Shown here: piece by piece, positions 1 to 64,000 of the stretch | How positions within the stretch are numbered: position 1 is the stretch's first letter | Layout: each line of letters opens with the position of its first letter | DNA from: Octopus sinensis | Lineage: Eukaryota | Length of the DNA stretch: 64,000 bases | Assembly (NCBI RefSeq): GCF_006345805.1 | Contig: NC_043007.1 | Coordinates: forward strand, 19,096,001 to 19,160,000 | Direction of reading: 5' to 3' | Notes under the pieces: generated by a model | Databases searched by the model: none | Seen by the model: only the letters and a program-made list of their open reading frames with translations | Told to the model about the DNA's origin: nothing | Translations under genes and position numbers: made by a program

Positions 1-315
1 CCTCGAGTATATTCCGCATTTCCCCCCAAAATTTAAAGGTCAAAATCCTTAGTGCGTACTATATACGAAGTTAAAAATGAAAAATATTTTCTAAGCAATG
101 TCCGAGTTTCTATTTGCTCGGGCGCAAAAATACCTTAAGCTAAGCCTGAAAGCGACGAAATCATAAAAGAATCATCCATAACTTGCAGTAAGCAACATTT
201 ATTAAACGTTATTACTGTTATTTCTTTATCTTCTGCAAACAAAATGCACAAAAAAGCTACACGTTTGCATTATGTTATATATACAATAATAATAAAGGAC
301 GTTACTGTATACATT
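1..315 (+). mobile_element. Partial Tc2/pogo-type MITE (short subfamily), cut by the window edge and truncated at about 315
   Basis: Near-identical to 3026-3777 and to the reverse complement of 30207-30719. It lacks the same internal segment as the 30207 copy. Confidence 0.8.
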
Positions 316-3777: not shown

Positions 3778-4574
3778 TATTTCGTAATCGAGATGCAGTA
3801 GGAATGATGAAAGAGAAGAGGAAATGGCTGAATCAGGGGATTCTAAGTGATGGTAGTAGAGATGAAGAACTAACTGGAACAGAAGCTATTGCAGAAGTAA
3901 TAGAAGAGATCAGGGTTCCAAATGTGTTCATGAGTCTTTGCCAAACAAACAAAATTTTTGGGGATAAGGAAACATTTTCAGTGACACAATTCACTGGAAA
4001 ATACGAAGAGTTTCATCCATATTCAAAAGGTTGCCATAAATTTACTTGATGTTGGCATAATTCAGGCATTTTTTAAAGAGTTCTTATAAGATTAACAGAC
4101 AATCTGAAGAGTTACAGAGGAGTATTTAATGTAACATATGAAAGAGTCAACTCTGCAAGCATTCCTTATTCATGTCTGTTGTCATTTTCCAAGAAAGTTC
4201 TTCACAACATTCAGCAATTTTATTGAGGTTTTTCTTCTTCAGAGGCTGGAGAATATAAGAATGGAATTTTTTACCAATTAAATATCGTTTTAACTAAACA
4301 GGAAATAAAATTCAAAGAATTTTAAAACGACAAAATATGTCTTCAGACAGTTATGAACGTTGACATTTGAAAAATAAATGTAAAATATTCTATGTAACAA
4401 ATACACACATACACAAACACACATAACACACATATCTGGATATGTTCATACATACATACATACATATATATATACATACATACATACATACATGCATGCA
4501 TACATACATACATACATGCATACATACATACATACATACACACATGCATACATACATACATACGTATATATATA

Positions 4575-4984: not shown

Positions 4985-5850
4985 GGAAATGAAATGTATG
5001 CAGTTGGAAGATGTAGCACAAAAGGTGGAACATGTGGGAAGCAACAAAATTAAGGTAAAGGAGTACGTCTACCTTGGACACACAGTGAATATGTTCTAGC
5101 AGGGTGGAAGGCATTTAACTCAGTAAAGGATGTGATCCAAACCAATCTAGACAATGTTATACGTGCCAGACTCTTCGATAGCACCGTCCTAGCTGCACTC
5201 TTATACCCAAGTGAGACGTGGGCTATTACGAAGAGGATAGAACATTCGCTTGGGTGTAATGCAAAGGGCCGTGGAATGACCCCTTGATAGGAATATCACT
5301 AAGAGACCATGTTTGGAATGAGATGATTCAGGAAGGGAGCAGAGTGAACAATGTGGTTGCAGAGTACCAAAAGCACAAGTTCTGCTGTGTTGGACATTTC
5401 GTAAGGTTCACAGACAACAGGTGGACCCATGCATTTGCTGTATGGTATCCTAGTGATACCATACCATACAAGGTGGCAAGCTGGCAGAATCGTTATCACG
5501 CCAGGCGAAATGCTTAGCAGTATTTCGTCTGCCGTTACGTTCTGGGTTCAAATTCTGCCGAGGTCGACTGCCTTTCATCCTTTCTGGGTCGATTAAATAA
5601 GTACCAGTTACACACTGGGTTCGATGTAATCGACTTAATCCGTTTGTCTGTCTTCTCTGTGTTTAGCCCCTTGTGGGTTGTAAAGAAATAGGTATCCTAG
5701 TGATCAGAAAAAGCCATTTGGAAGGCCTCCACAATGATGGGAACATGATTTAGCTAAGCAATTTGGGTCAAGACAGAAAAGAATGGTACAATCGAGACAA
5801 TTGGAAGTGCACTGTGACCAGCGGTGTGTAACAACATCTGATGATATATG
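4985..5850 (+). mobile_element. Degenerate RTE-clade LINE reverse transcriptase C-terminal fragment, interrupted by a SINE
   Basis: Frame-broken motifs EYVYLG, WKAF...RARLFDSTVL..LLYPSETW, IGISLRDHVWNE.I, KFCCVGHFVRFTDNRWT..WYP and GRPP. Confidence 0.8.
5458..5690 (+). mobile_element. Single-unit tRNA-derived SINE (family A here) with a 14-bp TSD
   Basis: TSD GGTATCCTAGTGAT at 5444-5457 and 5691-5704. tRNA-like head with B box GGTTCAAATTC, and core GTCGACT..GCCTTTCATCCTTTC..GGTCGAT. Confidence 0.9.
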
Positions 5851-8932: not shown

Positions 8933-9719
8933 CCCTATTTCTTTATTGCCCACAAGGGGCTAAACATAAAGGGGACAAACAAGGACAGACAAGGGGATTA
9001 AGTCGATTACATTAACCCCAGTGTGTAACTGGTACTTAATTTATCGACCCGGAAAGGATGAAAGGCAAAGTCGACCTTGGCGGAATTTGAACTCAGAACG
9101 TAGCGGCAGGTGAAGTACCTATTTCTTTACTACCCACAAGGGGCTAAACACAGAGAGGACAAACAAGGACAGACAAGGGAATTAAATCGATTACATTAAC
9201 CCCAGTGCGTAACTGGTACTTAATTTATCGACCCCGAAAGGATGAAAGGCAAAGTCAACCTCAGCGGAATTTGAACTCAGAACGTAATGACAGGCGAAAT
9301 ACCAATTTCTTTATTACCCACAAGGGGCTAAACATAAAGGGGACAAACAAGGACAGACAAACGGATTTAGTCGATTACATCGACCCCAGTGCGTAACTGG
9401 TACTTAATTTATCGACCCCGAAAGGATGAAAGGCAAAGTCGACCTCAGCGGAATTTGAACTCAGAACGTAATGACAGGCAATATACCAATTTCTTTACTA
9501 CCCACAAGGGGCTAAACATAAAGGGGACAAACAAGGACAGACAAACGGATTTAGTCGATTACATCGACCCCAGTGCGTAACTGGTACTTAATTTATCGAC
9601 CCTGAAAGGATGAAAGGCAAAGTCGACCTCGGCGGAATTTGAACTCAGAACGTAACGGCAGATGAAATACGGCTATGCATTTCGCCCGGCGCGCTGACGT
9701 TTCTACCAGCTCCTCGCCG
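8933..9719 (-). mobile_element. Family A SINE concatemer: one tRNA head plus four 184-bp bodies
   Basis: Unit starts at 8934, 9118, 9302 and 9486 (period 184). The head GCTGG.AGAAACGT.AGC.CGCCGGGCGAAATGC occurs only once, at about 9665-9719. Confidence 0.9.
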
Positions 9720-10357: not shown

Positions 10358-10666
10358 ATTCCATTAGGCTATACAAATTACAAGCAAGAACTTGAAATTC
10401 TTGTGAGCTGGCTGACCTATTTAGTGAATGGCCCACAGGTGGCAGTGAGTACAGCTGTGCATTTAAACATTTTTTCATACAACACTTGTGTAAGTGATAT
10501 CTTGATTTTGTGACCTCCTTAGCTTATTTTACTCAAATTTCATCCTGGCAACGGTGTCTAAGAAAGATGCGAGTCTCACTGATGTCTTAAAGTGAAAGTT
10601 AAATTCACAATTTCGTTTTGTCTGGGAAATGACAACAAGCACATATGAAATGGTATTTGATAGGAA

Positions 10667-11083
10667 AGGCGGCAAACTGGCAGAATCGTTGGCACGCCGG
10701 GCGAAAAGCTTAGCGTTATTTCGTCTGCCGTTACATTCTGAGTTCAAATTCTGCCGAGGTCGACTTTGCCTTTCGTCCTTTCGGGGTCGATTAAATAAGT
10801 ACCAGTTATGCAATGGGGTCGATGTAATCGACTTAATTCGTGTGTCTGTCCTTATTTGTCCTGTCTATGTATTGGCCCCTTGTGGGTAGTAAAGAAATAG
10901 GCATTTCATCTGCTGCTACGTTCTGAGTTCAAATTCCGCCAAGGTCGACTTTGCCTTTCGTCCTTTCGGGGTCGATTAAATAAGTACCAGTTATGCACTG
11001 GGGTCGATGTAATCGACTTAATCCGTGTGTCTGTCCTTGTTTGTCCTGTCTATGTTTAGCCCCTTGTGGGTAGTAAAGAAATA
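10667..11083 (+). mobile_element. Family A SINE dimer (head plus two bodies) with a 15-bp TSD
   Basis: TSD GGTATTTGAT(A/G)GGAA at 10652-10666 and 11084-11098. Internal junction AAATAGGCATTTC at about 10895-10907. Confidence 0.9.
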
Positions 11084-11506
11084 GGTATTTGATGGGAATT
11101 ATGTCAATTTAGATTTATTTTTGTCAGTACATTTTCTGATGACAAAGAAAAAAAAGACAGCAGGAGAAAAAAGAGAGAAATTCCATTTTATTCCTGACAG
11201 CTATTTTGAATGACCATTAAAAAACCAATGGAATATGGTAAGAGTACCAGTGTAATTCAAGAATGATGAAATGGTTTTGATACTGTCAAATTCATGGAAT
11301 GGAATTCGTCAAGTAGCTTCATAATGGAGCAGGCTCAATTGTTCCATAAAGAACTTAAATTGGAGCATAATTTGTAACTTAAAGGGCATGGATAGGTGGC
11401 CACCACTGATCAGCAAAATGGTCAATACAGGAAGGTTTTGAAACCAATGGCACTGGAAATTTAGAGTTGCATCTGCTGCACATATAATGAACTAATATAT
11501 ATTTAA

Positions 11507-14989: not shown

Positions 14990-15290
14990 AACTAGTAGGA
15001 TACATGGGCCCCGAAATATTTCTACTCTTGGCACAAGGCCCCGATCCCAGTACGCCGAATGCAAAGTCGACCTCGGCGGAATTTTAACACAGAACGTAAC
15101 GGCAGACGAAACGTTCTGAGTTCAAATTCTGCCGAGGTCGACTTTGCCTTTCATCTTTTCAGGGTTGATAAATTAAGTACCAGTTGCGTACTGGAGTCGA
15201 TCTAATCGACTGACCCCCTCCCCCAAAATTTCGGGGGCCTTGTACCTAGAGTTGAAAAGAATATTTCGGGACCCTTGTATCCCCTAGTAC
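14990..15290. mobile_element. Head-to-head pair of headless SINE bodies (tail type B) with inverted flanks
   Basis: A minus body at about 15015-15110 abuts a plus body at about 15111-15263. The flank ACTAG..GGATACA.GGG.CCCGAAATATT is present inverted on both sides. Confidence 0.75.
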
Positions 15291-26204: not shown

Positions 26205-26640
26205 GCTGGTCCTAGGTAAAAAGCACCCAATTTGGTGCCATAGAAGTACTGCACTAGTGTTGCATAAAAGCACCCAATCTGGTTCCACAGAGGCACTGCA
26301 CAGGTGTCACATAAAAAGCACCCAATCTGGTGCCACAGAGGTACTGCACAGGTGTCGCATAAAAAGCACCCAATCTGGTGCCACATAAGCACTGCACTGG
26401 TGTCGCATAAAAAGCACCCAATCTGGTGCCATATAAGCACTGCACTGGTTTCGCATAAAAAGCACCCAATCTGGTGCCATAGGAGCACTGCACTGGTGTC
26501 GCATAAAAAGCACCCAATCTGGTGCAATATAAGCACTGCACTAGTGTCTCATAAAATGCCCCAATCTAGTGCCATAGGAGCACTTCACTGGTGTTGCATA
26601 AAAAGCACTGAGGCTGGTACCACATAAAAAACACCCGGTA
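26205..26640 (+). repeat. 48-bp minisatellite (about 9 units) within an RTE 3' UTR-type element
   Basis: Unit CTGGTGTCGCATAAAAAGCACCCAATCTGGTGCCATATAAGCACTGCA gives the 16-aa periodicity in the ORF track. It continues into the RTE UTR tail. Confidence 0.9.
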
Positions 26641-38327: not shown

Positions 38328-38494
38328 GATGCGAGAAAATGTCTAAGTAATAGTTATTATAGAGAAGATATGAAATAGAGAGTGAAGTGGAGGAATGAAA
38401 CCAGATGCGAGATATGTAAGGATATTGTATCTGCAGTTCCATTATTTAAGCAGAATGGTGTATATATATAAGTTTCCTGTACCTTGTGTACCGG

Positions 38495-39161
38495 AAGGGA
38501 TGAAGGGTAAGGTTGACCTCAGTGGAATTTGAACTCAGAACGTAGCGGCAGGTGAAATACCCATTTCTTTATTGTCCACAAGGGGCTAAACACAGAGGGG
38601 ACAAACAAGGACAGACAAATGGATTAAGTCGATTATATAGACCCCAGTGCGTAACTGGTACTTATTTAATCGACCCTGAAAGGATGAAAGGCAAAGTCGA
38701 CCTCGGTGGAATTTGAACTCAGAATGTAACGGCAGACGAAATACCCATTTCTTTATTGTCCACAAGGGGCTAAACACAGAGGGGACAAACAAGGACAGAC
38801 AAACTGATTAAGTCGATTATATCAACTCCAGTGTGTAACTGGTACTTATTTAATCGACCCTGAATGGATGAAAGGCAAAGTCAACCTCGGTAGAATTTGA
38901 ACTCAGAATGTAACGGCAGACGAAATACCCATTTCTTTACTACCCACAAGGGGCTAAACACAGAGAGGACAGACAAGGACAGACAAAGGGATTAAGTCAA
39001 TTATATCGACCTCAGTGCGTAACGAGTACTTATTTAATTGACCCCGAAAGGATGAAAGGTAAAGTCGACCACGGCGGAATTTTAACTCAGAACGTAGCAG
39101 CAGACGAAATACGGATATGCATTCCTCTGGCATGCTAACGATTCTGCTAGATCACCGCCTT
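38495..39161 (-). mobile_element. Family A SINE concatemer: head plus three bodies, joined to an older SINE core
   Basis: GAAATACCCATTTC junctions at about 38555, 38739 and 38923 (period 184). Confidence 0.9.
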
Positions 39162-41442: not shown

Positions 41443-42107
41443 GCTGTGAGATATGCTGTGACTGCAAAGACCCGGGCTGCTTCCTGCACCAGTTCCGCAT
41501 AGCCCCTGCCCATTCAAAGTACCTTGGATTCCAGAACATCCCGCTGTGCTTGAGGAGACCTGTTGAGTCAAGTACATGAACATCGAAATAAATATCAATG
41601 GAAATAGTAGTTGTGATACCTGTAGGAAATAGTAGTTGTGATACCTGTGCCAGTGGCACATAAAAAGCACCATCCGAACGTGGCCGATGCCAGCGCTGCC
41701 TCAACTGGCTCCAGTGCTGGTGGCACATAAAAAGCACCATCTGAATGTGGCCGATGCCAGCGCTGCCCTGACTGGCTTCTGTGCCGGTGGCACATAAAAA
41801 GCACCATCCAAACGTGGCCGATGCCAGCGCCGCCTTGGCTGGCTTATGTGCCGGTGGCACGTTAAAAGCACCAACCGATCATGGCCGATGCCGGACCCCC
41901 CCTGGCACCTGTGCAGGTGGCACGTAAAAAGCACCCACTACACTCTCAGAGTTGTTGGCATTAGGAAGGGCATCCAGCTGTAGAAACTCTGCCAGATTAG
42001 ATTAGAGCCTGGTGCAGCCATCTAGTTTGCCAGTCCTCAGTCAAATCATCCAACCCATGCTAGCTTGGAAAGCGGATGTTAAACAATGGTGATGATGATG
42101 ATGATGA
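41441..42107 (+). mobile_element. RTE LINE 3' end with a 67-bp tandem repeat in the 3' UTR and a (GAT)n tail
   Basis: The start matches the ORF end/UTR of 11945-12195. TAAAAAGCACC recurs at about 41661, 41728, 41795, 41862 and 41925. Confidence 0.8.
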
Positions 42108-44439
42108 TTCCAATCTTTTCAACAAGGAAGTTTATGATTTTGCAAAAAAAAAAAAATCTTTTAAACCCCTAAATCCTTATTTATTGCAATTTCTTATTTC
42201 AAACTTTTCTGATTTTATTCTTAAATGCTGATTGCTTCTCATAATTTTTCAGTTTCATCTTCTGATCATAAACTGAAAAAATACTTAATTTTTCATGATT
42301 TCCCCCAGTATTGAGCCCTACATATTTTGGCAAGTAGGTGTACTTTAATTAATATTTTGTGGTGGTGGTGGTGGTGGTGGGGGAGGTAATTTAGTCCAAT
42401 TCTCTTCTCTGATTGAGAAGCCTTGTGGTGAAACGTGTTTCAACCATGACCACCCCGTCTTTTTACAGTCACAGTGTATATCAAGACTGTCCAGTATGTG
42501 GGTGTGTGGACGTCCACCTGTTTCTATTAAGACTGTAGCATCAGAACCATTTTCAGGTGGCCATCAGCTCGGGTACTATATCAATGACACAAACCCACGC
42601 ATATAGGCGTAGGAGTGGCTGTGTGGTAAGTAGCTTGCTTACCAACCACATTGTTCCGGGTTCAGTCCCACTGCATGGCACCTTGGGCAAGTGTCTTCTA
42701 CTATAGCCTTGGGCCGACCAAAGCCTTGTGAGTGGATTTGGTAGACGGAAACTGAAAGAAGCCCGTCATATATATGTATATATATATATGTGTGTATATG
42801 TTTGTATGTCTGTGTTTGTCCCCCCAACATTGCTTGACAACCGATGCTGGTATGTTTATGTTCCCGTCACTTAGCGGTTCAGCAAAAGAGACCGATAGAA
42901 TAAGTACTGGGCTTACAAAGAATAAGTCTCGGGATCGAGTTGCTTGATTAAAGGCGGTGCTCCAGCATGGCCGTAGTCAAATGACTAAAACAAGTAAAAG
43001 AGTAAAAGAGAGAGAATATACCAAAGACGTGCTCCCCAGGATTTCTTGGACACATAGACCTTCTGGACATCTCCGCTGCAGCACCAGAGTAGGATCTGTG
43101 ATTCGAGGGTGATTTAGTTATTTTGCTGGACAGGTCAAACTGCCACTGAACTGAAGTACCTTCATATGCTAGTCCTAGCAGCTTTTACAAACAGCAATTA
43201 TTTATTTTTTTTCAATTTTTTTCTGTTCGAGATAACACATTCAGTATTTTAAAGGCCCAGTACATCACTGGTATTCTTTCATTACTTTACTCTTTTACTT
43301 GTTTCAGTCATTTGACTGCAGTCATGCTGGAGCACCCACTGCCTTTAGCCAAAGAAATCAGCCCCAGGACTTAATCCCTGTATGCCTAGTACTTAATCTA
43401 TCAGTCTCTTTTGCCGAACTGCCAAGGTACGTGGACATAAACACACCTACATCGATGTCAAGTGATGGTGGAGGCACAAACACACACAAACACACACATC
43501 TATATATATATACATATTTCTTTACTGCCCACAAGGGGCTGAACATAGAGGGGACAAACAAGGACAGACAAACGGATTAAGCCGATTACATCAAACCTAG
43601 TGCGAAACTGGTTCTTTATTTATCGACCCCGAAAGGATGAAATGCAAAGTCGACCTCGGCGGAATTTGAACTCAGAACGTAGCGGCAGACGAAATGCCAC
43701 AAAGCATTTCGCCAGGCATGCTAACGTTTCTGCCAGCTTGCTGCATATATATATATACACACACACACACATATATGATGGGCTTCTTTCAGTTTCTGTC
43801 AACCAAATCCACTCACAAGGCTTTGATTGGCCCAAGGCTGTAGTAGAAGACACTTATCCAAGGTGCCACTCAGAGGGTACTGAACCCGGAACCATGTGGT
43901 TGGGAAGCAAGCTTCTAACCACACAGCCACTCCTGCACCTAGAAGTCAACAGAATATTTATGTCTATATTTACTGAGCTGTGTCTTCTTTTAGAATTCTA
44001 CTCATATACCTAAGATGTCCCTACATGTATGGCTCATCACATTGGACCCAAAGTGTTTACCTAAGTCATCTTCTTGTTGTCTTCGAGGTTTTCCAAGTAG
44101 TCTCTTCCAATCTACAGGATATCAATTGGTTTCAAATTTTGGTACAAGGCCAGCAATTTCAATGGCATCTGTAAGTCGATTACATTGACCCCAGAGTCCA
44201 ACTGGAACTTATTTTATCGAACCCCCCACCACCACCACCAAGCGGATAAGTCAACCTTGGCAGAATTTGAACTCAGATTGTTAAGTTGGAAGAAATAGCC
44301 ACTAACCATTTTCCTGGCATGGTAATGATTCTGCTAGCTCACTGCCTTTCTTTGGATACCAGTTGATTCGAGGGATATTTAGCTATTTTGCTGGACAGGT
44401 CAAACTACCACTGAACTGAAGTACCCTGAAGTACATGGG

Positions 44440-44930: not shown

Positions 44931-44954
44931 GATTTCAGGGTTTGTGTCTTAGCA

Positions 44955-45243
44955 TATATTTCCTATCTGCATCTTTACGTTCTGAGTTCAAATTCCGCCG
45001 AGGTCGACTTTGCTTTTATCCTTTCGGGGTTGATAAATTAAGTACCAGTTGTGTGCTAGGGTCGATCTAATCGACTGGACCCCCTCCCCCAAAATTTCGG
45101 GCCTTGTGTCGAGAGTTGAAAAGAATATATTTCCTATCTGCGTCTTTATATTCTGAGTTCAAATTCTGCCGAGGTCGACTTTGCCTTTTATCCTTTCAGG
45201 ATCGATAAATTAAGTACCAGTTGAAAAGAATGTATTTCCTATG
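44955..45243 (+). mobile_element. Two headless type B SINE bodies separated and flanked by three copies of the target sequence
   Basis: AT(A/G)TATTTCCTAT occurs at about 44955, 45125 and 45229. Confidence 0.8.
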
Positions 45244-52670: not shown

Positions 52671-52844
52671 CTCTCACCTCCTGAATGTGCCGCAGAGTGA
52701 AGAGTGTGGAAGCCAAGGAGCCGCGCTTGTCTGTTCGTGACTGCGCAGGCACTTAAAGCAGTTATTGAAAGCACGGCACAAGTTTCCGAGCCATACCTGC
52801 TCACGACGACTGGCCGTTGTACTGTATAATAATAATAACATATT

Positions 52845-53755
52845 ATTTTCCACTCTAGGTAGAAGGCCCGAAATTTTGAGGGAGAGAGGGGGCCAGTCGA
52901 TTAGATCGCACCAGAACGCAACTGGTACTTAATTTATCGACCCCGAAAGGATGAAAGGCAAATTTGAACTCAGAACATAAAATCAGAGGAAATACCTATT
53001 TCTTTACTACCCACAAGGGGCTAAACACAGAGGGGACAAACAAGGACAGACAAACGGATTAAGGCGATTATATCGACCTCAGTGCGTAACTGGTACTTAA
53101 TTTATCGACCCCGAAAGGATGAAAGGCAAAGTCAACCTCGGCGGAACTTGAACTCAGAACGTAAAGACATACGAAATACCTATCTCTTTACTACCCACTA
53201 AACACAGAGAGGACAAACGGATTAAGTCGATTATATCGACCCCAATGCGTAACCGGGGTCGACCTCAAAATGATGAAAGGTAAAGTCGACCTCGGCGAAA
53301 TTTGAACTCAGAACGTATAGACAGACGAAATACCTATTTCTATTTCTTTCCTACGCACAAGGGGCTAAACACAGAGAGGACAAACAAGGACAGACAAACG
53401 GATTAAGTCGATTATATCGACCCCAGTGCATAAATAGTACTTAATTTATCGACTTCAAAATGATGAAAGGCAAAAACGATCTCGGCGGAATTTGAACTCA
53501 GAACGTAACGGCAGACGAAATACCTATTTCTATTTCTTTACTACCCACAGGGGGCTAAACACAGAGAGGACAAACAAAGACAGACAAACGGATTAAGTCG
53601 ATTACATCGACCCCAGTGCGTCACTGGTACTTAATTTATCGACCCCGAAAGGATGAAAGGCAAAGTCGACCTCGGCGGAATTTGAACTCAGAACAGACGA
53701 AATACGGCTACGCATTTCGTCCGGCGTGCTAACGTTTCTGCCAGCTCGCCGCCTT
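52845..53755 (-). mobile_element. Chimeric SINE concatemer: head, four type A bodies and one terminal type B body
   Basis: GAAATACCTAT junctions at about 52990, 53174, 53327 and 53517. TSD ATAACATATT at 52835-52844 and 53756-53765. Confidence 0.88.
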
Positions 53756-53788
53756 ATAACATATTGCATATCGGACAATGTAGTAGTC

Positions 53789-54230: not shown

Positions 54231-54470
54231 GAGGCGGCAAGGAGCTGGCAGAATTGTTAGCACACCGGGCGAAATGCGTAGCCGTATTTCGTCTGCCGTT
54301 ACGTTCTGAGTTCAAATTCCGCCGAGGTCGACTTTGCCTTTCATCCTTTCGGGGTCGATTAAATAAGTACCTATTTCTTTACTACCAACAAGGGGCTAAG
54401 CACAGAGAGGACAAACAAGGACAGACAAACGGATTAAGTCGATTATATCGACCCCCAGTGCGTAACTGGT
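54231..54470. mobile_element. Family A SINE with its 3' half inverted
   Basis: Plus-strand head and core run to AAATAAGTACC (about 54371), followed by the reverse complement of the 3' half from TACCTATTTC to AACTGGT. Confidence 0.85.
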
Positions 54471-55158
54471 CCTTCATAGAATTACTGTGGTTACGTTAAA
54501 CGAATTTGCATATTGTTACCTATTAATTCATGCAATGGACTCCTATTCGGAATAAACCGTGCTGTTTGAAACACTTGTAGTGAGGATCTGTGAAGGCGCT
54601 TGGCTTAGTGGTTAGGGCATTCAGCTCACGATCGCAAGGTCGTGAGTTCGATTTCCGGCGGCGCATTGCGTCCTTGAGCAAGATACTTTATTTCACGTTG
54701 CTCCTGTCCACTCAGTTGACCAAAATGAGTAGTACCTGTAATTCAAAGGGGGCCAGCCTTGTCACATTCTGTGTCACACTGAATCTACGTTAAGGGCACA
54801 CGTGTTTGTGGAGTGCTCAGCCCCTTGCACATTGATCGGATCAAGTGGAACACTCTTCATTGTAACCGACGGAGGACCTTAGTGATGCTCTGTAGTAGCT
54901 ATTCGTTTTATTCACAGGTATTGCACCGTGTAAAATATATCAGTTATTCATTGGTACAAACATGGATCCGTGAGTTACTCGAGAGCAGTTGCATCTGTTT
55001 GGCTCTCTACAGACTGTTCATTTGACCAGTGGAATGGCCAGGAATATTTCTTTGGAGATATCTGTAATAATGCGCAGAGGTGCTTCTGGGTTGACTTGTC
55101 AATAGCCAATAGTTTCATGTCGCATAAGAAGAGGTAAAATTAGCAATCATCAGATATG

Positions 55159-59213: not shown

Positions 59214-59368
59214 CTCTAGATTATGCGATATTGATTTCCTTTATCACAGGAACGACAGGATGGTCACGGCCGGAATATTTTCGACTATCTCATAGGTATT
59301 CTTGATTAGAGTTTTATCTACAGCGAAACAGTCTCACACTAACTCCTCAACATTACAACTAACATACC

Positions 59369-60135
59369 TATTTCTTTATTACCCACAAGGGGCTAAACAC
59401 AGAGGGAACAATCAAGGACAAATGGATTAAGTCGATTAACTGGTACTTAATTTATCGACCCCGAAAGGATGAAAGGCAAAGTCGACCTCGGCGGAATTTG
59501 AACTGAGAACGTAACGGCAGACGAAATACCTATTTCTTTACTACCCACAAGGGGCTAAACACAGAGAGGACAAACAAGGACAGACAAACAGATTAAGTCG
59601 ATTACATCGACCCAGTGCGTAACTAGTATTTAATTTATCGACCCCGAAAGGATGAAAGGCAAAGTCGACCTCGGCGGAATTTGAACCCAGAACGTGGCGG
59701 CAGACGAAATACCTATTTCTTTACTGCCCACAAGGGGCTAAACACAGAGGGGACAAACAAGGACAGACAAGCGGATTAAATCGATTATATCGACCCCAGT
59801 GCGTAACTGGTACTTATTTAATCGATCCCGAAAGGATGAACGGCAAAGTCGACCTCGGCGGAATTTGAACTAAGAACGTAGCGGCAGACGAAATACCTAT
59901 TTCTTTATTACCCACAAGGGGTTAAACACAGAGGGGACAAACAAGGACAGACATAGGTATTAAGTCGATTACATCGACCCCAGTGCGGAACTGGTATTTA
60001 ATTTATCGACCCCGAAAGGATGAAAGGCAAAGTCGACCTCGGCGGAATTTGAACTCAGAACGTAACGGCAGACGAAATACTGCTAAGCATTTCGCCCGGC
60101 GTGCTAACGATTCTGCCAGCTCCTCGCCGCCTTTT
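59369..60135 (-). mobile_element. Family A SINE concatemer: head plus four bodies with a perfect 17-bp TSD
   Basis: TSD ATTACAACTAACATACC at 59352-59368 and 60136-60152 (GGTATGTT... on the SINE strand). Junctions at about 59523, 59705 and 59890. Confidence 0.92.
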
Positions 60136-63100
60136 ATTACAACTAACATACCACTACTCTTACAACCACCGCCACCACCACCACCACCACCACCACCGTA
60201 ACCAATGCTATCTCATCACTAAAGCACAACAACAACCACAACAGCACAAACAATACTTGACTGATAACAACAGACATTTTCTTGTGGCAGCATTTTTCTC
60301 ATTTGGTACCAGGAAGCTTTTCACTCTGTAACGCTCGACATTTCATAAGTAGCAGCAGAGTGTGAAGCCAGTGATATCGCCTGTTTGTGTGAGTGGCGAC
60401 TCAAGTATGCGTTTCGTTTTATCTTGGAAGCCAATGTTTACAAAAGCAGCCTTGTTATGTGTGCGCGTGTGAGGGGGCAGAGGGCGTCCTTCGCAAAAGT
60501 GTTTTTTTTATCGTAGGCGCAGGCGCAGTTGCGTGATAAAAGGTTTGTTTTGCAACCAACCACATGGTTTCGGGTTCAATACCTCTGTGTGGGACCCTGG
60601 GCAAGTATCTTCTACTATACTCTTTTACTTGTTTCAGTCATTTGACTGCGGCCATGCTGGAGCACCGCCTTTAATCGAGCAACTCGACCCCGGGACTTAT
60701 TCTTTTGTAAGCCCAGTACTTATTCTATCGGTCTCTTTTGCCGAACCGCTAAGTTACGGGGACATAAACAACACCAGCATCGGTTGTCAAGCAATGCTAG
60801 GGGGAAAGGGGGACAACACAGACAACACAACACACACACACATATATATATACATATATACGACGGGCTTCTTTCAGTTTCCTACTACTAAATCCACTCA
60901 CAAGGCTTTGGTCGGCCCGAGGCTATAGTAGAAGACACTTGCCAAGGTGCCACGCAGTGGGACTGAACCCGGAACCATGTGGTTGGTAAACAAGCTACTT
61001 ACCACGGGAGAGTTTACGAAAAAAAAAACCCAAAAGATGAAGACAGGTGGTGTAGAAAACAAACAGATGTATTAGTATAACGCTCAGGAATAGAAAAAGT
61101 CTTTTACGTTTCGAGCCTAAGCTCTTCTACAGAAAGGGACACAGAAAAAAAACAAGGAGAGAAAAAAATGTGTGTAGTGGCTAACGATCTATCATGACTT
61201 CTACTATAGTCTTGGGCCAGCCAAAGCTTTGTGACTGGATCTGGTAGACGGAAACTGAAAGAAGCCTGTCGTGTGTGTGCGCGCACCTGTCATTTTTTTT
61301 GTGCTGTTTGTCTTTAACGACTGTTGTTGGTTTGTTTACGTCCCTGTAACTTAGCGGTTCAGCATTATAAGAGGCGAGCCTTCTGATGGCCACCCCAAGG
61401 GAGACAGAAGCATGGCAGTCCAAAAACATGGAGAACTTCCACAGAACTGGCAGGTAGCGACACCAGGGGACAACTGCAATCCCTTGTTGAAGATCAAGAC
61501 AAATGGAGACGTCTTGTTCGTACTCTGGGTTCTATATGGAATGAAGAAGAGTATGATTTAACAGCTGTTTCTAGCAGATAGGATGACCAAGTACAGGCTC
61601 CTGACAGTGAGGACAGCAAAAACTGAAGCGGTATACATGGGTGTGTCATAAAATGAATAAATTGGGGTGCAGGGGCTCAAGTTGTGGCCCTTGTCAAAGA
61701 GGGGCTGATTTCATATTACATCAAAACACATGGCCCCTATTTTTTCCTTGTCAAATCTGATCAACATTACCCCCACTCACTGTGGTCTTTCATTGAATTA
61801 AAAACTTCACAATAGTTTCTAGAGATAGCCTAGGTCTTCGTTCACTGAGCCATCAATATCTCTCACAGTAAATAGGTACCATGAGGTGGTGCAATGTTGA
61901 GGCAAAGAGGTGCAGAAACGGCTGCAGTGTGTAACTCAAGGTAGGTGTTTTCTTCAGCTTGGTGACAATGACTATTGACTGTTGAGCGAACAGTCTTCGT
62001 CCCGGAGCTCGCAAGATGGGAGAAGTCCGAAACGTGGTCCTTTGCTATTCGTAAGATCCGCAGAAGAGAAAGCAGGTCAACCCCGACACCGAGAGCATCG
62101 ACGGATGGATGAATGCGCATCCAGGCTCAGCAGTTGCGTAGGAAATCGGGGACAAGAAACAGGAAGAAAGAGTGAGAGAAAGCTGGGGCGAAAGAGTACA
62201 GCAGGGGTCGCCACCACCCCCTGCCGGAGCCTCGTGGAACGTTAGGGTTTTCGCTCAATAAACACACACAACGCCCGGTCTGGGAATCGAAACTGCGAGT
62301 CTGCTGCCCTAACCATTGGGCCTCCTGGTGACGATGATGAAAAACCAGCCAAATTTCCTTCAAATTACTTGGATAAAGTATTCATTATTACTTTAGAATG
62401 ATGGAATGGTCGAGGATGGAAGGCTTTAAATAGGTTTGCTCTATCACAGCTGACCTAAAGTTAAATAATATCAACCTAATGTAAAATGTAAATTATACCT
62501 CCCCATGGTACCTATTAATATTGAGGTGAACATTGAGCACAACAAAGTCTACAACATCACACATTTCACCCTCAAACCAATGAGGGAACTTCTATAAGGT
62601 TGCTTGACCTGCCAGAAATAGCAGCCAAATTTCTCTTTGAACCCATTCTTGATAAAGGGCACTGGATGGTCATGAATGGAAAGCTTTTGATCACAGGTTA
62701 GCTCATTCAGGACTGACCCAGGGTTAAACAACACTAAATCTATTATTGACACTACTCTATCACCAACACCACAACCACCACTACAACCAATACTACCAAC
62801 AATAAAAACATCACAACTACCACCAACTTACACTCACCATTACCCACCTACTACCACCACCACCACCACCACCACCACCACCACTACTACTACCAATACC
62901 ACCACTACTACTACTACTACTACTACCAACAACAACATTAATGGCATTACCACCACTGCTACAACCAAAGTTAACTACCACCACCACGACCACCACCAGC
63001 TAACGCCAATCTCACGTCTCTCACTGCCAATTTCACACTGACCGCGTTTTACAGTTCAACTAATCAACTCCACTGATTGTTGTCTTCTCCACAGCCTCTC

Positions 63101-63304: not shown

Positions 63305-64000
63305 TTTGTTGTAGTGTTGTGGTAGTTGTGCCGGTAGTGTGATTGTGGTTGTGGTAGTTGTGTGGTTGCTGTTATGGTAGTTGTGACGGTAGCATGATTG
63401 CTGTTGTGGTAGTTGTGACAGTGGTGTGATTGCTGTTGTGGTAGTTGTGACGGTGGTGTGATTGTGTTGTGGTAGTTGTGACGGTGGTGTGATTGCTGTT
63501 GTGGTAGTTGTGACGGTGGTGTGATTGCTGTTGTGGTAGTTGTGACGGTAGTGTGATTACTGTTGTGGTAGTTGTGATGGTGGTGTGATTACTGTTGTGG
63601 TAGTTGTGACGGTAGTGTTATTGTGGTTGTGGTAGTTGTGACGGTAGTGTGATTACTGTTGTGGTAGTTGTGATGGTAGTGTGATTGTGGTAGTGGTAGT
63701 TGTGACGGTAGTGTGATTACTGTTGTGGTAGTTGTGACGGTAGTGTGATTGTGGTAGTTGTGACGGTAGTGTGATTACTGTTGTGGTAGTTGTGATGGTA
63801 GTGTGATTGTGGTTGTGGTAGTTGTGACGGTAGTGTGATTGTGGTTGTGGTAGTTGTGACGGTAGTGTGGTTGCTGTTGTGGTAGTTGTGACGGTAGTGT
63901 GATTGCTGTTGTGGTAGTCGTGACGGTGGTGTGATTGCTGTTGTGGTAGTTGTGACGGTAGCATGATTGCTGTTGTGGTAGTTGTGACGGTAGTGTGATT
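63305..64000. repeat. About 33-bp GT-rich minisatellite running off the window
   Basis: Unit GTTGTGGTAGTTGTGACGGTAGTGTGATT(A/G)CT, repeated about 20 times. Confidence 0.92.

Follow-up and report, generated by a model that had tools for sequence, protein, structure and literature searches.

The conversion of dispersed retroposons into tandem repeats is an open question. Double insertion of transposable elements, as set out by McGurk and Barbash (2018, PMC5932611), is a source of satellites that grow later by unequal exchange. In the available text of that work, whose main text does not contain the word SINE, each insertion restores a preferred site at which the next can occur, and tail-to-internal junctions are described for non-LTR elements; the target lies outside the element, the junction retains the target-site duplication (TSD) and the extent of 5′ truncation varies. 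The available account of the squamate sSat satellites, for example snake sSat3 (Vassetzky et al. 2023, PMC10702118), traces them to a fixed-register part of a tRNA-type SINE. Their homogenised units fall short of the full SINE, one of its ends being retained in most; the arrays are subtelomeric, reach about 1000 units and are explained mainly by unequal recombination. In the mollusc Scapharca broughtonii, TSD-(SINE)n-TSD arrays combine one complete head with head-truncated inner units within one TSD pair (PMC11481361). In that species the inner units lack part of the 3′ tail as well, about 3% of SINEs are involved and unequal recombination is suggested; the accessible part of the paper describes no analysis of target, age or intermediates. 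As far as the available sections of these reports go, published SINE cases describe end products without a tested mechanism.

Target choice has been treated in other elements. For R2Ol, R1Bm and SART1, the available texts describe read-through RNA that pairs with the target (PMC6530143, PMC7265360), and for RTE-type SINEs a correlation between tail and TSD is described in the accessible text, with RNA-target pairing suggested (PMC6007223). The octopus SINE family analysed here makes a mechanism testable, since its events number in the tens of thousands, intermediates survive, ages are ordered within arrays and two lineages differ in register. It was noticed in the window (the whole stretch of 64,000 nucleotides that was analysed) as five arrays in which one head is followed by several bodies.

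The SINE family and its tails

The element is 233 nt long, non-coding, dispersed and present in high copy number. Positions 1-168 are common to all family members, and at least four kinds of tail, named A, B1, B2 and C, occur. An A-box-like motif lies at position 13 (pattern match) and a B-box-like motif at about 76-87 (by eye), the latter one base longer than the strict pattern, which was itself unmatched. In the predicted fold an acceptor-like stem forms between the 5′ end and 86-90, and a long head hairpin has its loop at 45-48 and position 50 at its top. ARAGORN and Rfam gave no tRNA match for the head, and the label tRNA-like refers to the A- and B-box-like motifs and the predicted fold. 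A folded dimer is not unusually stable (z -0.6). The lack of a hammerhead core noted in the preliminary description was borne out on both strands, and no Rfam ribozyme matched. Tail A contains no run of four T, and the TSDs of tail-A monomers, present in 41 of 84, vary from 8 to 20 bp. We take the head and central domain to resemble the octopus CORE-SINE OR2 of Ohshima and Okada (1994). OR2 is cited in the accessible text of PMC4758252.

The last ~55 nt of tail A are also found in a separate, variably 5′-truncated family, longer copies of which carry a zf-CCHC ORF. This family is large (13,919 candidate places) and its frame is ORF1-like (loci L261-L272 and L274-L277); in L271 and L274, zf-CCHC copies run straight into a tail-A-like 3′ end without a reverse transcriptase (RT). 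A search of five loci of this family for an autonomous partner found no RT-bearing copy with a tail-A 3′ end, and the family is possibly a tail donor or an ORF1-only non-autonomous LINE. At L273 (C9:56706500-56714500) a frame with a Penelope-like RT and GIY-YIG directly follows a truncated zf-CCHC ORF, and three places in the assembly match the ORF with equal scores. This frame interrupts the shared sequence and lacks the shared tail; the locus was rejected as the partner, and the frame is read as an unrelated Penelope-like insertion.

Five arrays in the window

All five arrays are real, each with one head and 2-5 bodies, and all 14 of their junctions resume at position 50 of the 233-nt element, which bears out the claim that they share one fixed site. 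Other parts of the first reading needed adjustment. The period, given as a fixed 184 bp, holds at most junctions, but two junctions in the fourth array have six extra bases and the period there is 190. AAATA, said to close every 3′ end, closes most of them, with AAATT or AAATG at five. A single TSD pair, said to bracket the whole array wherever TSDs can be read, is found in three of the five.

Array 1 (8936-9718, minus strand, TRF period 184) comprises a head and four tail-A bodies at 9489-9718, 9305-9487, 9120-9303 and 8936-9119. Units 1 and 3 appear to be combined as a mosaic in unit 2, which would mean local duplication. Array 2 (10666-11083, plus strand, period 185) has a head and two tail-A bodies that differ by 4.2% and have three rare variants in common, a probable local copy; its 15-bp TSD begins GGTATTT in the 5′ copy at 10652-10666 and has one mismatch in the 3′ copy at 11084-11098. 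Array 3 (38491-39161, minus strand, period 184) has a head and three tail-A bodies, of which unit 1 differs by 11-15% from units 2 and 3, followed by a fourth, last body that ends early at position 120. The TSD search at arrays 1 and 3 found none. Array 4 (52846-53755, minus strand) has a head, four tail-A bodies and a B1-tailed last body, presumed to be the original host; one of its bodies carries deletions, and the AT-rich TSD copies lie at 53756-53765 (5′) and 52835-52844 (3′). Array 5 (59369-60133, minus strand, period 184) has a head and four tail-A bodies from different subfamilies, 5.6-9.6% apart. Its 17-bp TSD copies lie at 60136-60152 (5′) and 59352-59368 (3′), the latter beginning GGTAT.

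The window also holds a tail-A monomer at 5470-5690 (plus strand) with a 14-bp duplication starting GGTAT (5444-5457 and 5691-5704), and a tail-A monomer of variant C, a tail variant treated below, at 43515-43744 (minus strand), with a TA-rich target and a 14-bp TSD. At 54232-54477 a family member (positions 1-138, plus strand) abuts an opposite-strand, 5′-truncated tail-A copy. Judged from the sequence, this is an antisense insertion into a family member, with the tail-A 3′ end at a GGTAC site (54372). Here and at 15019-15260, oppositely oriented family members are joined into palindromes. A B1-type tandem at 44948-45240 has its 3′ end joined to a TATTTC site in the same head region and carries an extra partial repeat. 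The position-50 junction itself (for example at 10894-10907) is a short palindrome of GAAATA, two bases and TATTTC that mimics an arm of the head hairpin. Unrelated minisatellites lie at 26217-26608 (48 bp), 41644-41935 (67 bp) and 63315-64000 (32 bp).

Genome-wide scale of the junction

Exact matches were counted over the 2.72-Gb assembly, in which the window belongs to contig C11. There are 124,457 exact tail-A 3′ ends, and a tail-A end followed by the 13-base position-50 sequence has 23,860 exact matches, as against 0 for the reversed-pattern control, so the junction is not due to chance. Chains with one head and many bodies, linked at a single fixed point, number in the tens of thousands in this genome, and the idea of a built-in route of multimerisation that acts genome-wide is supported by these counts.

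The frequency and fixity of the junction were assessed in an unselected sample of 1.464 Mb, made up of the window and 14 blocks of 100 kb, each either adjacent to it or placed at a round coordinate. Family sequence follows 69 of the 149 tail-A ends in this sample, resuming at position 50 in 54 cases, at 49 or 51 in three, with six extra bases in two, at position 17 in six and elsewhere in four. One junction position across loci, as first proposed, describes the 57 of 69 that resume at 49-51, but there is a second register at position 17. With the window left out, 46 of 130 tail-A ends are position-50 junctions, or about 33 per Mb, a density that would extrapolate to near 89,000 genome-wide. 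Head-bearing A elements with one, two, three and four units number 54, 17, 10 and 5 (with array 4 split by the parser). B1-type bodies that retain the site intact have 2,625 matches, and a tail-A end precedes 66 of the first 100 listed. Junction matches are spread along the interior of C1, and arrays of 2-4 units occur in mid-contig blocks.

That the arrays are an assembly artefact is hardly credible. Unit number per locus is known from this assembly alone, which would leave room for such an error, but the units differ by 2-15% and carry TSDs, and in contigs from the independent runs X2, X12 and X13 body sequence again follows a tail-A end, which means that the junction also exists outside this assembly. 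Loose ends at 11090 that continue into the body number 116 in X2, 86 in X12 and 112 in X13, and the flanks of the insertion at 10666 run into the element on the left and right in organisms B and C and on the right in organism D.

Position 50 as a DNA target

The site followed by a new full head within 12 bases has 104 matches. Five repeat loci were dropped from the first 30, and the other 25 were read by eye. At 17 of these 25 loci a nested insertion has duplicated the site, nine times in a host head and eight times at an existing junction, and the structure runs from host head through target-site duplication, full new copy and second duplication to host body. In L201 and L202 a full young A copy splits a diverged C-type host, and in L210 a deletion private to the host is present in both copies of the target-site duplication. 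Position 50 is a real DNA target, and the site is present again after each insertion. Where arrays are seamless, the shared sequence hides the 5′ copy of this duplication. Fewer than 0.5% of junctions are still visible as nested intermediates, which makes it necessary to assume that joining is seamless in nearly all cases or that the head is lost later.

One further locus among the 25 is unclassified, and seven have extra head fragments or no 3′ copy; these seven could be template jumps, a process that may account for a minority of junctions. Extra head fragments would also suit an origin of whole arrays in a single event, either by an RT that jumps from the head to the 3′ end of another RNA or by the copying of multi-unit masters. 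Such an origin agrees with the lack of a T4 terminator, from which multimer RNAs are expected, and with a head-bearing dimer that lies inside another SINE with its own TSD (C3 block 73157), but cutting of the site in DNA is evident from the nested intermediates. Together with the age evidence below, this makes a one-event origin quite improbable.

Several other structures were seen around the site. Mirror arrays of many heads and one body, with a 65-bp period, occur at L184 (C1:194222256), L186 (C1:195358953) and other site-plus-head matches, and up to five identical head repeats lie within one TSD pair. L182 and L194 have a short extra head piece (~31-70) at the 5′ junction ahead of the full element. 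In L259 a diverged duplication of ~85 bp (4350-4435 and 5352-5437) flanks an array and an upstream repeat.

Age order, heads and outer duplications

Divergence was computed without the subfamily-diagnostic columns. In 19 arrays that end in a B1 body, the head (53/655, 0.081) and the last core (140/1752, 0.080) are diverged to about the same degree, as against 0.038 (67/1767) for the first core, and CpG sites give the same order (0.155, 0.153 and 0.072). In monomers the head stands at 0.051 and the core at 0.039, and the excess of head over core is greater in arrays than in monomers (p=0.011). Over 62 arrays, head divergence correlates more closely with that of the last unit (rho 0.37, p=0.003) than with that of the first (rho 0.26, p=0.044). 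By these divergences, the first body is on average younger than both the head before it and the last body, which gives an old-young-old order. An array made in one event should have a head as young as its first body, whereas the head has about double the divergence of the first body and follows the last one.

A single outer TSD, which is what one event would leave, was found in 20 of 37 A-ended arrays, 16 of 26 B- or C-ended arrays and 41 of 84 monomers, with at most two in shuffled controls. Mismatches within these TSDs, however, number 12/242 in B- or C-ended arrays and 10/263 in A-ended arrays as against 10/552 in monomers (p=0.018 for B- or C-ended arrays versus monomers), so that array TSDs are older than monomer TSDs, contrary to the one-event view.

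The heads themselves are of mixed descent. Head variant and body haplotype are linked in 16 of 25 monomers versus 4 of 19 arrays (p=0.006), and a head variant almost confined to tail A occurs in 3 of 25 B- or C-ended arrays. In B2- or C-ended arrays the head is diverged by 0.094, versus 0.155-0.193 in B2 or C monomers, and position 21 is A in six of seven such arrays and T in 88 of 100 B2 or C monomers. These donor-type features argue against a strict host-head model and would also suit a one-event origin; the remaining head of an array is therefore better described as a likely mixture of host and donor. Mixed heads are expected if cDNA invades the host head or if two heads recombine, and also if some arrays are copied whole.

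Relatedness of units

The comparison of units covered 84 A monomers and 80 arrays, some of them from loci that had been picked for their junctions. Divergence between neighbouring A units is 0.083, compared with 0.096 between arrays, and 67 of 79 adjacent pairs have fewer than two rare variants in common; in these pairs the units are as far apart as unrelated ones (0.090 vs 0.096, p=0.20). Nine of the 79 pairs are less than 0.03 (3%) apart, and the nearest neighbour lies within the same array for 28 of 133 units, so the constant clustering by array that the preliminary description expected of ordinary unequal crossover is not seen. By their last body, 26 of the 80 arrays end in B or C and 17 in a truncated or unclassified body. 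Judging from these comparisons, the units of an array are mostly of independent origin and of mixed subfamilies. The independence is not complete, since adjacent units have the same haplotype in 18 cases versus 11.5 expected (p=0.014), an excess that a one-event origin would also produce. In contrast to what copies of one dimer master would show, unit number is not fixed and there are no clear recurrent pairs of unit 1 and unit 2 across the 80 arrays (20 weak recurrences vs ~7 expected, confounded by B-type variants), which again tells against arrays made in one event.

Two further explanations are weighed by the same data. Local tandem duplication, in which microhomology of position 50 with a TSD downstream that begins GGTAT would set off unequal crossover or slippage, has left clear traces: at least 15 of 122 junctions link units with two or more rare variants in common, in the window arrays 8936 and 10666 among others, and long, evenly spaced arrays exist, such as that of ten C-type units at C1:30.02 Mb. 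Yet GGTAT follows only 7 of 37 A-ended arrays, and duplication cannot produce the different tail family in which 26 of 80 arrays end. Unit independence and these foreign-tailed ends lead us to reject it as the main cause, and as a general account it is very improbable. For rolling-circle reverse transcription of a circular 184-nt RNA, one of the routes first considered, the fixed junction and period speak, as does a predicted fold in which the unit ends can pair. A circle would give identical units and no head, however, whereas the units are of mixed subfamily and age and a head is present; there is no hammerhead core and a second register exists. With units mostly independent and last bodies foreign-tailed, circle copying is rejected, there being next to no likelihood left for it, and unequal crossover is secondary. 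Array 8936-9718, the leading case of the preliminary description, is itself among those that are locally homogenised.

Two long arrays stand apart. Ten variant-C junctions are spaced at ~185 bp in C1:30020861-30022550, an array that has probably been amplified locally, and about ten homogeneous B2-tail bodies with a period of ~168 bp are joined near head position 52 in C23:15029850-15031740 (L083-L084).

Two registers and two tail variants

One tail position splits tail A into variant T (92,685 exact ends) and variant C (31,772). GGTAT comes after 50,720 of the T ends (55%) and 3,401 of the C ends (11%). The junction at position 17, which gives a period of 217 bp, has 2,128 exact matches genome-wide; variant C makes up 89 of the first 100 listed of these, as against 3 of the first 100 listed for position 50. 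Outside the SINE, targets of variant T start with GGT in 34 of 67 cases and with AGA in two, and those of variant C in none and nine of 37, respectively, while TAT-type targets are used by both. The earlier statement that the junction motif equals the target motif of the family fits variant T but fails for variant C in this form; the genomic targets of each variant appear to resemble that variant's own junction. A second head is kept in two of seven position-17 cases, as compared with fewer than 0.5% at position 50, although these cases are few and differently sampled. Upstream homology at the position-17 junction is only 16 bases.

The simplest reading of the two registers is that the 3′ flank of the RNA pairs with the nicked target. 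Such pairing would lead variant T to position 50 and to GGTAT-type sites, and variant C to position 17 and to AGA- or TAT-type sites. Alternatively, insertion may be stepwise in the same way with the site picked by the endonuclease of a partner, the second head being lost through recombination between 65-bp repeats, and no RNA guide. This would fit all the nested and age evidence as well as the mixed heads; the multi-head arrays at L184 and L186 show that head repeats recombine or slip, and position 50, at the top of the predicted hairpin, could be prone to nicking. RNA templating itself gave a weak result, with B1 host bodies starting in donor-type bases in 27 of 66 versus 8 of 34 cases (p=0.12). 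Occupancy is harder to accommodate, as 39 of 86 exact copies of the position-50 site come after a tail-A end, compared with roughly 1% (a rough estimate) of 2,268 genomic GGTAT sites, so a short motif alone is insufficient for the hit rate. The likeness between each variant's genomic targets and its own junction also stands against it. We regard an endonuclease without an RNA guide as the less likely but still a serious alternative, and the same holds for the version in which variants T and C, whose monomers look similarly diverged by eye, relied on separate partners or periods.

A stepwise model

Repeated self-targeted insertion with homologous 5′ resolution, one of the routes named at the outset, fits best with the nested intermediates and their TSDs, the age order and the mixed subfamilies. 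Arrays would grow one unit at a time, a new tail-A copy retro-inserting at position 50 of an older member and, by re-creating the site, allowing the next insertion at the same position. The cut top strand and the host head might then pair with the cDNA's own head and yield a seamless step of 184 bp; alternatively, two heads could recombine soon after insertion. Either would leave a head that is a mixture of host and donor. As tail A has no T4, Pol III may read into the next body, and the read-through 3′ extension could pair with the nicked target, so that copies made from arrays would aim at the same site in relatives. Local duplication would afterwards lengthen some arrays, as is shown for a minority. 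Stepwise self-insertion, by either targeting route, is in our view very likely. The whole chain, with a 5′ join made by homology and a target probably found through read-through RNA, is favoured with more reserve.

More tentatively, the SINE RNA may serve as its own guide, its read-through part pairing with family copies and its head annealing upstream, with base-precise homing as the result. It is equally conjectural that the junction register, 50 or 17, is heritable and self-reinforcing by way of the RNA flank. If targeting is RNA-guided in this manner, target choice would be inherited through flanking sequence and not through an enzyme, and much of the insertion load of an abundant SINE would fall on copies of itself; the self-guide would amount to mass production of satellite seeds. 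Self-insertion, if true, is a direct route from mobile elements to satellite DNA. Repeat annotation and dating are also affected, as the heads and bodies of arrays differ in age.

Comparison with known systems

The openly accessible article texts searched contained no account of these arrays or of SINE self-targeting with seamless joins. Retrozymes have a partial-tandem organisation, and reverse transcription can start inside an RNA. Penelope-like partial tandems are a looser parallel in these same two respects, according to the available text (PMC11167929).

In the elements with read-through pairing, as in the reading preferred here, the 3′ end or flank of the RNA forms pairs with the nicked target, by which insertion is biased or improved. 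As far as the accessible accounts go, R1, R2 and SART1 are autonomous and site-specific with a targeting endonuclease, and RTE-SINEs have simple-repeat tails. In contrast, the octopus family is non-autonomous, has no repeat tail and would use its own next unit as the flank.

The likeness to Scapharca broughtonii lies in the single complete head, the head-truncated inner units and the one TSD pair, again in a mollusc. With sSat, on the evidence of its accessible description, the arrays have in common a start in mid-head, the retention of box B and the presence at many loci. Differently from sSat, their units reach the 3′ end, are heterogeneous and dispersed, and mostly number 2-4. Homogenisation within loci, typical of sSat, is confined to a minority (the nine of 79 close pairs), and its subtelomeric position and long arrays are not matched in the places sampled, where junction matches are spread along the interior of C1 and mid-contig blocks contain arrays of 2-4 units. 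Double insertion is matched in the duplicated target site (the 17 of 25 nested loci) and the independent origin of units. What is new relative to double insertion, as it is presented in the available text, and to SINE satellites is that the target lies inside the element's own head and that the join is seamless at one position, in more than a third of tail-A ends.
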